Shown here piece by piece: positions 25,780 to 32,816 of a DNA stretch of 34,123 nucleotides. This DNA is from Escherichia coli (GTDB lineage: Bacteria; Pseudomonadota; Gammaproteobacteria; Enterobacterales; Enterobacteriaceae), in the NCBI RefSeq assembly GCF_003334385.1, contig NZ_QOWN01000047.1, one strand, 5' to 3'. Position 1 is the first letter of the stretch, and every line of letters begins with the position of its first letter. The position numbers and the translations under genes were made by a program. The notes beneath the pieces are model-generated. The model was not told the DNA's origin and made no database searches. It was given only the letters and a program-made list of their open reading frames with translations.

Positions 25780-26094
25780 TTGGGGCCAAAACTGTCCATA
25801 TCATAAATAAGTTACGTATTTTTTCTCAAGCATAAAAATATTATAAAACGACAAAAAGCATCTAACTGTTTGATATGTAAATCATTTCTCTTGTAAATTA
25901 ATTTCACATCACCTCCGCTAAATGTAAAGCTAACGTTTCTGTGTCTCGAAGCAACTTCCTCATTCTTCTCTCCAAAAACCACCTCATGCAATATAAAAAT
26001 CTATAAATAAAGATAACAATAGAATATAAAGCCAACAAATAAACTGAAAAAGTTTGTGCGCGATGCTTTCCTCTATGAGTCAAAATGGCCCCAA
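25780..26094. mobile_element. fimS: fimS invertible phase-variation switch (about 314 bp) bounded by 9-bp inverted repeats
   Basis: TTGGGGCCA at about 25780-25788 and its inverse TGGCCCCAA at about 26086-26094 flank an AT-rich segment between fimA and fimE, matching the known fim switch architecture. Confidence 0.85.
25799..25829 (-). promoter_or_regulatory. Candidate fimA sigma70 promoter inside fimS, reading toward fimA (switch ON)
   Basis: On the minus strand, TTGAGA (about 25829-25824), an 18-bp spacer and TATGAT (about 25805-25800) lie just inside the fimA-proximal inverted repeat and point at fimA. Confidence 0.6.
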
Positions 26095-27214: not shown

Positions 27215-27817
27215 CTATAAAACAGCGTGACGCTGTCGTCCTCTGGCCCTATCCCAGATGCCGTAAAAACGCCCTGCATTGCTGGCGGTATACCAGACAG
27301 TATGACGAATATTGCGATGCCCAAGATAATCCTGGATAAGTCGCGTATCTATTCCCATATTCGCCAAAGCAAAACCACACGAATGGCGTAACATGTGCGG
27401 ATGAATCTCCAGTGACAACCCGGCATTACCACCGGAAGTCGAGATAATATGGTAAAACTGTTGCCGAGAAAGCGGATTCCCCTTACGCGATAAAAATACC
27501 CATTCGCTCTCAGCATGCGGGTACGAAGTACGGATACTCAACCAGTTTTTTAAAGCCTGAACTTCTTTGTTCAATAGCGGGTGCGTTGTTGAAAAGCCTT
27601 TTTTTAATCGATGGATATAGATACACTTTGCCTTAAGATCAATATCCGAAATCCTCAATCGACAAATTTCACTCGCCCGGAAACCATGAATAAAACAAAG
27701 CAAAGTCAGACAATAATTACGTGCTGCATGAGGCCCGGTATTTGCTGCTTTAAGGAGTGATTCGATTTCACTATGGGTCAGGAAGTTCCTTTTTTTGTTA
27801 TCAGCCTTATTCTTCAT
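27215..27817 (-). CDS. fimB: Tyrosine recombinase FimB (bidirectional switching)
   Basis: 200-aa paralogue of FimE (LGHRNIRHTVWYT) upstream of fimE. Confidence 0.95.
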   Translation of the reverse strand: MKNKADNKKRNFLTHSEIESLLKAANTGPHAARNYCLTLLCFIHGFRASEICRLRISDIDLKAKCIYIHRLKKGFSTTHPLLNKEVQALKNWLSIRTSYPHAESEWVFLSRKGNPLSRQQFYHIISTSGGNAGLSLEIHPHMLRHSCGFALANMGIDTRLIQDYLGHRNIRHTVWYTASNAGRFYGIWDRARGRQRHAVL

Positions 27818-28825
27818 CGTTTTCCCTTATAATTACAGACGCGCACTAGCTGTGCTGGGTTAGCAATAATCCAACATTTTAATCCTGATTATGTTTATAA
27901 AAGCGAACGTTTGCTTAATAACTAACGTAAGTGGACCAGTTCTTCTGAGTGAACTTAAATGGAGTAGCGATAGTTACTTATAATAACTTTGCCATACAAA
28001 CGCCATGCTCTTGCATGCTATGTACCTTTATATATTTATAAATCTGATACGAATCGAATAATAACCCTCATCATTAATGCAACTAATCTTATCTATATAT
28101 CATGTGATATGTTCTGTAACAAGTAAAATCAACATAAAAAATTCAGCAAAATTTAATATTCGTTCAACTAGCCGTCTCACATATGACATTATTAGTCAAC
28201 TGCATTTGCCACAAAATGGCTATTTCATGGAACGCAGTAATTTTTTAGTGGCTATTATCATGCTAATTCTTAGATCCCTAGCGATTATTCCTGCCTGGTT
28301 CGTCAGCTTAGGCCATGAGATTGTTACATTCCCTTTTATCCTGGAGATATGGGGGAACGCAGGCGACGCTTTTTCATCTACATCCGTTGGTAACTATGGC
28401 TTTGGTCACTACGACTTAAACCTTCCTCAATCACAGCTATTCGCCGGGCGATACGGCAAACAAACTAAGTGAAACATCATCCTGAAAACACCAACATCAA
28501 CAAGCCTCTCCAGATCGACATCAGGAGTGACCAGTTACAAGCCACAAACCAAGAAACATATTTCATGATGAGAATTATACTCAGCCTGATGGCGGGTAAA
28601 CACTTATTTTCACCAAGCTCACTGAGTTAGCTTGCAAAGCTTTCTTTGTTTAGATTCTAAATAAATTATTTACAAAACAGATTGTTAAAAGAAAACCTTT
28701 AGTTTTTGAAGACCAATGCAAGTGTTCGTCTGTCTTCACATGGCATCTGCTTCTTAGGAAAAGATCGACATATTTTGTGACACGAATTGCAAATCTGGTT
28801 TTGTTGTATGGATTGCGTGATTTTT

Positions 28826-28852
28826 GATCTGGTATAACAGGTATAAAGGTGC
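28826..28852. promoter_or_regulatory. Candidate NanR operator (tandem GGTATA repeats) with adjacent Dam GATC site
   Basis: GATCTGGTATAACAGGTATAAAGGTG read directly; GGTATA repeats are the NanR recognition element, sited in the long fimB-nanC intergenic region. Confidence 0.6.
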
Positions 28853-29270
28853 ACCGCGATAGTCAATGAGACTGGGCATCTCGTAATCTATGGCAAACAT
28901 CACTTCAGTTCTTTCTCATCGGGTGATGAAAACGCACTTCAGTCTGAAAGGAATATGAAAATGAGATCAACAGACACTCTATTTTATGACTCTGGGTAAA
29001 ATGGATTGAGTAAGCGATATAGCTTACGAAAATTCAAATCAATTAAACATCAGCAGAGATTTTATACTCAGGTATTTAATCTGGCCCTCTGTTTATTTAA
29101 ATAATGTGGAAAGAGATTTTTCACAGGAGATATTATACAAAAAATATAAAATACAGCTACCGGTTGCCAAAGACACTATAAGCCTGGCAAAAAAATATTA
29201 CACAACATAAATGCTAATTGTTTATGCGGGCTTTGTATTGCTTTCTGTATCCTACAAATGAGTGAAATTT

Positions 29271-29987
29271 ATGAAAAAGGCTAAAATACTTTCTAGCGTA
29301 TTATTACTGTGCTTTTCGTCCCCATTAATTTCTCAGGCTGCGACACTGGACGTACGTGGTGGATATCGTAGTGGAAGCCACGCCTATGAGACTCGACTCA
29401 AAGTCAGTGAGGGATGGCAAAATGGATGGTGGGCAAGCATGGAAAGTAATACCTGGAATACCATTCATGATAATAAAAAGGAAAATGCCGCACTCAATGA
29501 TGTTCAGGTTGAAGTTAATTACGCGATTAAACTTGATGATCAATGGACGGTGCGCCCGGGAATGTTAACGCATTTTAGCAGCAATGGCACACGCTACGGA
29601 CCCTACGTAAAACTGTCCTGGGACGCGACAAAAGATCTTAATTTTGGCATTCGCTATCGTTACGACTGGAAAGCTTACCGACAACAAGACTTATCTGGTG
29701 ATATGTCTCGTGATAACGTTCATCGTTGGGATGGATATGTCACTTACCATATTAATAGTGATTTCACCTTCGCATGGCAAACGACGCTATACAGTAAACA
29801 GAACGATTATCGCTATGCAAACCATAAGAAATGGGCGACGGAAAATGCATTTGTTCTACAATACCATATGACGCCCGATATTACGCCATACATAGAATAT
29901 GACTACCTTGACCGTCAGGGTGTTTACAACGGCAGAGATAATTTATCGGAAAACAGTTATCGCATTGGTGTGTCATTTAAACTGTAG
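29271..29987 (+). CDS. nanC: N-acetylneuraminic acid outer membrane channel NanC (KdgM family)
   Basis: ORF 29262-29987; start at MKKAKIL... gives 238 aa with signal peptide and C-terminal Phe-like beta-barrel ending (VSFKL). Confidence 0.9.
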   Translation: MKKAKILSSVLLLCFSSPLISQAATLDVRGGYRSGSHAYETRLKVSEGWQNGWWASMESNTWNTIHDNKKENAALNDVQVEVNYAIKLDDQWTVRPGMLTHFSSNGTRYGPYVKLSWDATKDLNFGIRYRYDWKAYRQQDLSGDMSRDNVHRWDGYVTYHINSDFTFAWQTTLYSKQNDYRYANHKKWATENAFVLQYHMTPDITPYIEYDYLDRQGVYNGRDNLSENSYRIGVSFKL

Positions 29988-31177: not shown

Positions 31178-32158
31178 ATGAACGCAATAATATCGCCTGA
31201 TTATTACTATATTCTTACCGTTGCTGGTCAGTCTAATGCCATGGCGTATGGCGAAGGACTGCCATTACCGGACAGGGAAGATGCGCCTCATCCCAGAATT
31301 AAACAATTAGCGAGATTTGCGCATACGCATCCCGGAGGCCCGTCATGTCACTTTAACGACATTATTCCACTGACTCACTGCCCACACGATGTTCAGGATA
31401 TGCAGGGTTATCACCATCCTCTGGCAACGAATCATCAAACACAGTACGGCACCGTTGGCCAGGCACTGCATATAGCACGGAAATTACTGCCCTTTATTCC
31501 TGATAATGCAGGGGTTCTCATCGTTCCGTGTTGCCGTGGCGGATCGGCTTTTACCGCGGGCAGCGAAGGGACATATTCAGAACGGCACGGAGCCAGCCAT
31601 GATGCTTGTCGTTGGGGAACGGATACTCCGCTATACCAGGATTTAGTCAGCAGAACGCGAGCCGCACTGGCAAAAAATCCGCATAACAAATTCCTCGGCG
31701 TATGCTGGATGCAAGGCGAATTTGACTTAATGACCAGTGACTACGCGTCACACCCTCAACACTTTAATCATATGGTTGAAGCCTTTCGTAGGGATCTAAA
31801 ACAATACCATTCTCAGCTTAATAATATTACTGACGCACCGTGGTTTTGCGGCGATACCACCTGGTACTGGAAAGAAAATTTCCCTCATGCGTATGAAGTT
31901 ATTTATGGCAATTATCAAAATAATGTTTTAGCCAATATTATTTTCGTCGACTTCCAGCAACAAGGTGAAAGAGGACTGACGAACGCGCCTGATGAAGACC
32001 CGGACGATTTAAGCACGGGATATTACGGTTCAGCGTACCGGTCACCGGAGAACTGGACGACGGCACTGCGAAGCAGTCATTTCAGCACGGCAGCCCGTCG
32101 GGGGATTATTTCTGACAAGTTTGTAGAAGCAATTTTGCAGTTTTGGCGCGAAAGGTGA
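31178..32158 (+). CDS. nanS: Probable 9-O-acetyl-N-acetylneuraminate esterase NanS
   Basis: ORF 31151-32158 (TTG-initiated in the track); ATG at 31178 (MNAIISPDYYYILTVAGQSNAMAYG) gives 326 aa with SGNH-like GQSN motif. Confidence 0.85.
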   Translation: MNAIISPDYYYILTVAGQSNAMAYGEGLPLPDREDAPHPRIKQLARFAHTHPGGPSCHFNDIIPLTHCPHDVQDMQGYHHPLATNHQTQYGTVGQALHIARKLLPFIPDNAGVLIVPCCRGGSAFTAGSEGTYSERHGASHDACRWGTDTPLYQDLVSRTRAALAKNPHNKFLGVCWMQGEFDLMTSDYASHPQHFNHMVEAFRRDLKQYHSQLNNITDAPWFCGDTTWYWKENFPHAYEVIYGNYQNNVLANIIFVDFQQQGERGLTNAPDEDPDDLSTGYYGSAYRSPENWTTALRSSHFSTAARRGIISDKFVEAILQFWRER

Positions 32159-32165
32159 GCGTTCA

Positions 32166-32816
32166 TTAATTTGATTTATTCGCATCCATCAGCGCTTTTA
32201 ACTGCTCCGGCGTAAACGGTGGTTTGCGTCGGTGCAACATCGCATGGCAATTAGGGTACACAGGCAGCAAATCATTAACTGGATCCAGCTGGTAATCCTC
32301 TTTGATGGCTGACAGCGGCACCAGGTGATGCACATGGATAAAGCCTTCAGCGATATCACCATAGATCTTCACCAGATCAACACCGCATACGTTGCACTGG
32401 CATCCATGATGTTCGACCGCTTTATCTCGGGCCTTTTTATCGCGTTCATAGCGGTTTACTGTCACCTTTATCGCCGCACCTTCAAGGTATGTCTCCTGCG
32501 ACGGCAACTCATCCGGGAACAGAACGTCGGCTATGGGAGCCGCAGCGGCTTTATCCAGATGAATATGAAATCCCTGCTCTATGAGTAGCTTGACACATTT
32601 AGATTTTATTCCGCCGGTGAAATCCGCAGGGGTAAATTGCGTCCCCGTCATCAATGTCGCTGCGATGCCAGCAATCGCCTTCGAGGGGTAACGTCGGCCA
32701 TGATATTCAATCTCATACAACCGCGCAGGCTGGAACTGATGAGTTTCTCCCGCATCCCATAAATGGATAGCTTCGATGATATACCGCCGCGGAAGATGAT
32801 CAGGGAGTTTATTCAT
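32166..32816 (-). CDS. HNH endonuclease with N-terminal putative modified-DNA (possibly phosphorothioate) sensing domain; candidate type IV restriction enzyme
   Basis: 216-aa ORF. C-terminal HNH signature read directly: CQCNVCG ... HVHHLVP ... NDLLPVYPNCH. N-terminal about 120 aa contains RRYPSKA (Y-P-x-x-A), reminiscent of the sulfur-binding cavity of SBD domains; the SBD assignment is inference. Confidence 0.6.
   Translation of the reverse strand: MNKLPDHLPRRYIIEAIHLWDAGETHQFQPARLYEIEYHGRRYPSKAIAGIAATLMTGTQFTPADFTGGIKSKCVKLLIEQGFHIHLDKAAAAPIADVLFPDELPSQETYLEGAAIKVTVNRYERDKKARDKAVEHHGCQCNVCGVDLVKIYGDIAEGFIHVHHLVPLSAIKEDYQLDPVNDLLPVYPNCHAMLHRRKPPFTPEQLKALMDANKSN

Follow-up and report, generated by a model that had tools for sequence, protein, structure and literature searches.

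A fimB-nanC regulatory module with NanR and NagC operators and adjoining Dam sites in an Escherichia coli strain, identical in sequence to the K-12 module

The spacer between the recombinase gene fimB and the sialic-acid channel gene nanC of Escherichia coli raises the question of whether one operator lets sialic acid govern both genes, and whether the GATC sites beside it make its binding sensitive to Dam methylation. We addressed it in a 34-kb stretch of E. coli chromosome (34,123 nucleotides, hereafter the window), with the fimB-nanC spacer as the focus. A sequence-only reading of the window had proposed a NanR-type operator of GGTATA repeats with flanking GATC sites, about 430 bp upstream of nanC and about 1 kb upstream of fimB in a long AT-rich intergenic region, and control by sialic acid shared between the two genes with possibly methylation-sensitive binding. 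The genes, the operator and its Dam site are as follows.

fimB, 27215-27817, minus strand: tyrosine recombinase acting on the type 1 fimbrial switch; of the regulated genes, the distal one
nanC, 29272-29987, plus strand, ATG at 29272: sialic-acid outer-membrane channel and first gene of nanCMS, the proximal regulated operon
NanR operator O_NR, 28831-28854, plus strand: GGTATA-ACA-GGTATA-AAG-GGTGCA, two exact repeats and a degenerate third
Dam site GATC-NR, 28826-28829, no strand: 1 bp from GGTATA repeat 1

The spacer (27818-29271) is indeed long and AT-rich, with 1,454 bp and a GC content of 36.2% vs 48.3% for the whole window. O_NR lies in the control region of the sialic-acid genes, upstream of nanC-nanM-(nanS), and the distances from its first repeat to the two start codons came close to those estimated: the ATG of nanC is 441 bp downstream of it, and that of fimB is 1,014 bp away. 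The open reading frame list and the annotation of strain 94-3024 place nanM directly after nanC. In the stretch ~31178-32816, nanS is truncated in the 94-3024 lineage; the identical strain 94-3024 has it as a partial sialate O-acetylesterase, so that the nanCMS operon here consists of nanCM and a remnant. Beyond the nanS remnant lie fragments of island or IS genes and, on the minus strand, a gene for an HNH endonuclease (32166-32816). A 131-aa open reading frame in the spacer (28077-28472) is very unlikely to be a missed gene, its MG1655 counterpart carrying frame-breaking single-base indels.

The repeats themselves were found as proposed. The sequence GATCTGGTATAACAGGTATAAAGGTG is present exactly at 28826-28851, the exact GGTATA units occupy 28831-28836 and 28840-28845, and the degenerate unit GGTGCA occupies 28849-28854, which gives O_NR at least two direct GGTATA repeats with 3-bp spacers, as expected of an operator of NanR, a regulator of the GntR/FadR type. 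The window contains a single tandem GGTATA-N3-GGTATA, and 100 dinucleotide shuffles produced none; lone GGTATA hexamers are mildly enriched in the window (17 found vs 10 expected). The number of GATC sites is ordinary (136 found vs 123 expected in the window, five of them in the spacer), and the meaning of the two GATC sites near the operator therefore lies in their position. According to Horne et al. 2021, the GGTATA-repeat operator occurs in exactly three operons (nanA, nanXY and nanC), an oligonucleotide with (GGTATA)2 binds NanR with a KD of ~25 nM, and going from three repeats to two leaves the nanomolar affinity unchanged, with two dimers bound. The layout of two exact repeats and one degenerate repeat fits these two-repeat binding data, and as the third repeat is degenerate, perhaps only two NanR dimers may bind at O_NR. 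An absence of NanR binding to this segment is contradicted by genomic SELEX, in which NanR bound the nanC/fimB spacer of K-12. In the same study NanR stayed on this one site, nanC/fimB, in vitro even with Neu5Ac.

The second GATC, which had been placed about 60 bp from the first, is separated from GATC-NR by 59 bases, and the estimate of distance therefore held; the site, however, belongs to a NagC operator and not to NanR. The NagC operators and the neighbouring candidate sites are listed below, where the names in quotation marks are those of the known NagC operators in Table 1 of the FITBAR paper.

NagC operator O_NC1 ('fimB1', TGCAATTCGTGTCACAAAATATG), 28769-28791, minus strand: exact match to FITBAR Table 1
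NagC operator O_NC2 ('fimB2', CATAATTCTCATCATGAAATATG), 28557-28579, minus strand: 22 of 23 bases as in FITBAR Table 1
Dam site GATC-NC, 28763-28766, no strand: 2 bp from O_NC1
CRP-like half-palindrome TGTGA-N6-TTGCA, 28776-28791, plus strand: overlaps O_NC1, putative CRP site of the nanC promoter
IHF-like AATAAATTATTTA, 28660-28672, plus strand: weak candidate near the midpoint between O_NC1 and O_NC2

Using a NagC position weight matrix trained on eight other FITBAR-listed sites, with the fimB sites left out, we obtained the two top scores across the 34 kb at O_NC2 (19.4 bits) and O_NC1 (11.8 bits), as against a 99.9th percentile of 6.9. Their centres (28568 and 28780) are 212 bp or ~20 helical turns apart, a distance which permits cooperative looping of the type seen with the NagC operator pairs at nagE-nagB, glmU and chb. 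The K-12 literature documents NagC binding upstream of fimB by EMSA and an action of NagC on fimB which requires two sites, implying a loop, and a NagC loop between O_NC1 and O_NC2 would likewise be implied here. McVicker et al. place the sites in agreement with the present coordinates if the fimB leader is ~250 nt long. Matches to the CRP consensus were not above chance in the window, and the putative CRP site at 28776-28791 is proposed from positional homology only. Matches to the IHF consensus WATCAANNNNTTR were likewise not above chance in the window, and AATAAATTATTTA carries one mismatch to it; its position would suit a need for IHF, which the title of Sohanpal 2007 names as required.

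The spacer as a whole matches that of strain 94-3024 at 100%, is ~96% identical to that of the K-12 derivative H17 (~4% divergence), and was found in 5,110 of 5,426 complete E. coli genomes, in only 263 of these 5,110 at an identity of at least 99%. The 93-bp segment with O_NC1 and the repeats has a counterpart in 5,099 E. coli genomes, 3,110 of which carry it without any change. In the spacer alignment with K-12 MG1655 the segment 28760-28857 (98 bp) is 100% identical, with GGTGCA as the third unit in MG1655 also, and directly adjoins the most diverged stretch of the spacer. The same boundary is seen in an alignment of nine diverse E. coli strains, including K-12, O157:H7 and E2348/69, where four of 92 columns vary in 28764-28855 vs 40 of 124 in 28640-28763. 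None of the nine strains differs in either exact GGTATA repeat or anywhere in the O_NC1 box, the changes being located outside the boxes, in the spacer between the repeats or in the degenerate third repeat. Strain STEC1585 has changes at 28838 (inter-repeat spacer) and 28849 (third repeat), strain F5656C1 has TATC in place of GATC-NC (28763), and the outermost base of O_NC2 (28579) is A in the window vs G in the eight other E. coli. As a separate observation, E. coli E69 (locus L084) has a nanC-type upstream sequence which diverges right after the GGT of the third repeat; its nanC lies 443 bp downstream and is only 84% identical over the segment aligned by tblastn.

A chance resemblance, or a decayed relic that no longer functions in the present strain, might be read into the degenerate third repeat, the substitution at 28579 in O_NC2 and the truncation of nanS downstream. 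However, the tandem repeat is missing from every shuffle, the 98 bp are those of K-12 down to the GGTGCA unit, and the element is strongly conserved across strains and across ~5,100 genomes. We consider this explanation effectively refuted, and would grant it next to no chance of being right.

The closest known system is O_NR, O_NC1 and O_NC2 of the K-12 nanC-fimB region (El-Labany 2003; Sohanpal 2004, 2007; Condemine 2005), with the same locus, spacing and flanking genes. The differences are the strain background, the O_NC2 substitution and the ~4% divergence elsewhere in the spacer. In K-12, NanR and NagC activate fimB, and the inducers Neu5Ac and GlcNAc lower its expression. The proposed sharing of NanR control between nanC and fimB thus agrees with the published K-12 system, to which the segment is 100% identical. 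From the observed sequence identity, operator matches and conservation, we conclude with high confidence that the segment is the O_NC1 and O_NR part of the regulatory module between fimB and nanC, with the sequence known from K-12 and working by the mechanism proposed below, for which binding, activation and protection from methylation are taken from the K-12 literature. The element is already known and does not depart from the K-12 system. It ties the host amino sugars sialic acid and GlcNAc to type 1 fimbriation, a major factor in colonisation and urinary-tract virulence, but this link has been known from K-12 for some twenty years, and the same sequence in another strain adds nothing new to it.

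In the mechanism that we propose for the module, NanR dimers would bind cooperatively to the repeats at 28831-28854 when amino sugars are absent, and NagC would occupy O_NC1 and O_NC2 and close a DNA loop across the 212 bp, probably aided by IHF. The bound NanR would cover the core of the nanC promoter and keep nanCMS repressed, and NagC on O_NC1 would overlap the CRP-like site of the same promoter. [quoted passage not shown] When sialic acid is present, Neu5Ac would release NanR, and GlcNAc-6-P (a breakdown product of Neu5Ac) or external GlcNAc would release NagC, after which nanCMS would be induced and fimB expression would drop. GATC-NR and GATC-NC would lie within the protein footprints, shielded from Dam as long as the regulators are bound and methylated once they leave.

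The placement of the nanC promoter in this scheme draws on a comparison with the other two NanR operators, as a paralogous cassette of ~87 bp recurs in all three control regions (nanC, nanXY or yjhBC, and nanA), made up of a CRP/NagC-type site, a 35-bp spacer and GATCT with the repeats.

Cassette coordinates in the three-way alignment: nanC 28764-28850; nanXY, locus L001, 2975-3057; nanA, locus L003, ~4610-4690

The nanC cassette is 77% identical to that of nanXY and 63% to that of nanA, as against ~36% in the flanks. [quoted passage not shown]

Besides the 25-mer, the operator of nanA (nanATEK-yhcH) shares with that of nanC a homologous stretch of 62 bp upstream and a CRP-type site at equal distance. 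It differs in its perfect third repeat, (GGTATA)3 vs GGTGCA, in its control region devoid of a NagC-like site (top matrix score 1.8), and in its closeness to the start codon (37 bp vs ~420 bp for nanC). With no more than 37 bp between the operator and the nanA start codon, the repeats must contain the core of the nanA promoter, and by homology the nanC promoter core most likely overlaps O_NR. The nanC leader would then be ~420 nt long, with the CRP-type site ~61 bp upstream of the start and open to occlusion by NagC. The operator had been described as lying far upstream; it is upstream of the nanC ATG, as stated, but from the homology to nanA it is probably located at the nanC promoter itself. 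Reportedly, Neu5Ac induces nanC expression and GlcNAc modulates it by way of NanR and NagC, with cAMP-CRP, OmpR and CpxR as activators; this is consistent with the layout.

A simple sigma-70 scan of the spacer returned no promoter at O_NR and fewer matches in total than the shuffle mean, but a scan of this kind tells nothing about a CRP-dependent promoter whose -35 element is poor. A literature search for the nanC transcription start gave nothing useful, and a scan of the whole window at the Rfam gathering thresholds gave no match, so that none of the known RNA elements falls in the long leader of nanC. The closest paralogue is the nanXY operator, with its 77% identity over the cassette, GATCT with repeats and a similarly long leader (~410 bp); it differs from nanC in having a perfect third repeat and no divergent recombinase gene, and at the place corresponding to O_NC1 the matrix does not recognise a NagC site. 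Elsewhere in the nanX (yjhB) leader, ~250 bp downstream of the NanR operator, a NagC-like 23-mer TATCTTTCATAGAGTGAAATATG was seen (L001 3290-3312, 13.4 bits). As a weaker point, the nanC/fimB module may have arisen by duplication of a catabolic CRP-NanR promoter cassette, with the CRP site re-tuned to a NagC site.

This paralogy with the nanXY and nanA promoters suggests a catabolic-promoter origin and not a fimB enhancer, and so speaks for an operator which serves nanC only, its effect on fimB being indirect through divergent transcription, supercoiling or displacement of H-NS. H-NS binds multiple sites upstream of fimB, and the literature calls the mechanism of distant activation unresolved and lists alternatives. 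Against this, the K-12 genetics treat NanR and NagC as activators of fimB acting via O_NR and via O_NC1 with O_NC2. Moreover, O_NC2 lies 212 bp from O_NC1 toward fimB without an obvious role at nanC, and nonetheless it is conserved and outscores every other NagC site in the window. We therefore find a role confined to nanC highly improbable and retain the module shared by nanC and fimB.

An exact scan of ~100,000 species genomes for the 20-mer GGTATAACAGGTATAAAGGT returned 90 loci. In 86 of them the 20-mer directly precedes a nanA homologue, and 83 of these 86 have nanR as the next neighbour on the upstream side. The nanA-type operator is spread over ~86 enterobacterial species, and the 20-mer stands upstream of nanC only in E. 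coli-derived sequences, in agreement with Vimr, according to whom relatives have a single nan operator. Three entries (L009, L075 and L078) look like contaminations of other assemblies with E. coli or Citrobacter DNA, namely a contig of a 'Bacteroides' metagenome-assembled genome with a nanC-type site, a 265-bp 'Methylobacterium' contig with a nanXY-type site, and a 'Chryseobacterium sp. 18061' contig which is nearly identical to Citrobacter sp. 18056.

The dinucleotide CT precedes repeat 1 in 86 of 87 nanA-type operators, whereas the full GATC is found in 46 of the 87 and is missing from 41 with the identical 20-mer. The GATC is therefore dispensable for the persistence of the operator, which argues against a GATC that forms a required part of NanR recognition. 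Its presence at all three NanR operators of E. coli is striking nonetheless.

What, then, do the Dam sites do at the fimB-nanC module? NanR is said to bind region 1 and NagC region 2, each being needed for protection of its adjacent GATC, and reportedly GlcNAc abolishes only the protection by NagC and Neu5Ac abolishes both. In K-12 the three GATC sites beside the NanR operators are reported as protected from methylation, and in SMRT data their methylation level shifts over time, which contradicts full methylation of both sites under all conditions. A bioRxiv methylome paper contained nothing on the fimB-nanC locus and matched only through the word 'fimbriae'. The relation to Dam established in K-12 is that a bound protein protects its site from methylation, and the safest statement would be that the methylation state of the GATC sites serves as a read-out of occupancy.

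A true epigenetic switch would go further, in that methylation of GATC-NR (and GATC-NC) would lower the affinity of NanR (and NagC) and delay rebinding, so that nanC and fimB would show hysteresis or split into heritable ON and OFF subpopulations of the kind known at pap and agn43. The GATCT abutting all three E. coli NanR operators points this way, as do a 3- to 5-fold loss of nanC and nanR transcripts at 72 h in a dam mutant, for which the authors propose steric blocking of NanR, and the undermethylated GATC sites with Dam-dependent ON/OFF subpopulations at Salmonella nanA. However, the dam mutant was unaffected at 8 h and nanA itself was unchanged, the undermethylation in Salmonella was ascribed to CRP, and Westphal 2016 states that a methylation block of NanR 'has not been confirmed experimentally'. 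The 41 of 87 otherwise identical nanA-type operators without GATC, together with the NagC side of F5656C1, further imply that the GATC is not needed for operator function. On balance such a switch seems unlikely to us, and protection of the sites by bound NanR and NagC is the preferred account.

Feedback of methylation on NanR binding can nevertheless be put forward as a hypothesis, to which the ON/OFF subpopulations at Salmonella nanA lend indirect support, and it is the sole remaining point of some value at this locus. In a tentative and rather doubtful form of it, methylation of GATC-NR after release would lower the re-binding of NanR and so provide a short-term memory of sialic acid; if true, this memory would tie the induction of nanCMS to lowered fimB-driven fimbriation from one cell generation to the next. 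The likeness to pap (Lrp) and agn43 (OxyR) consists in a GATC in or adjacent to the regulator site, competition between the regulator and Dam, and a locus that controls an adhesin. However, at pap and agn43 methylation demonstrably blocks the regulator and the states are heritable, whereas at fimB-nanC only protection is reported, and in other genera the operator often lacks the GATC (kept in 46 of 87). We therefore do not place the element in the pap/agn43 family of Dam switches.

The phase variation of fim, unlike that of pap and agn43, is a DNA inversion by FimB and FimE and not an epigenetic state. The fim invertible element was located at 25780-26094; its inverted repeats of 9 bp are TTGGGGCCA at 25780 and the complementary copy at 26086, and compared with the MG1655 reference the element stands in the opposite orientation. 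On the minus strand, a strong promoter-like site, TTGAGA-18-TATGAT (25829->25800), is directed into fimA, and together with the inversion this indicates that the assembly holds the switch in phase-ON. Exact IHF consensus matches at 25863-75 and 26127-39 flank or occupy the invertible element.
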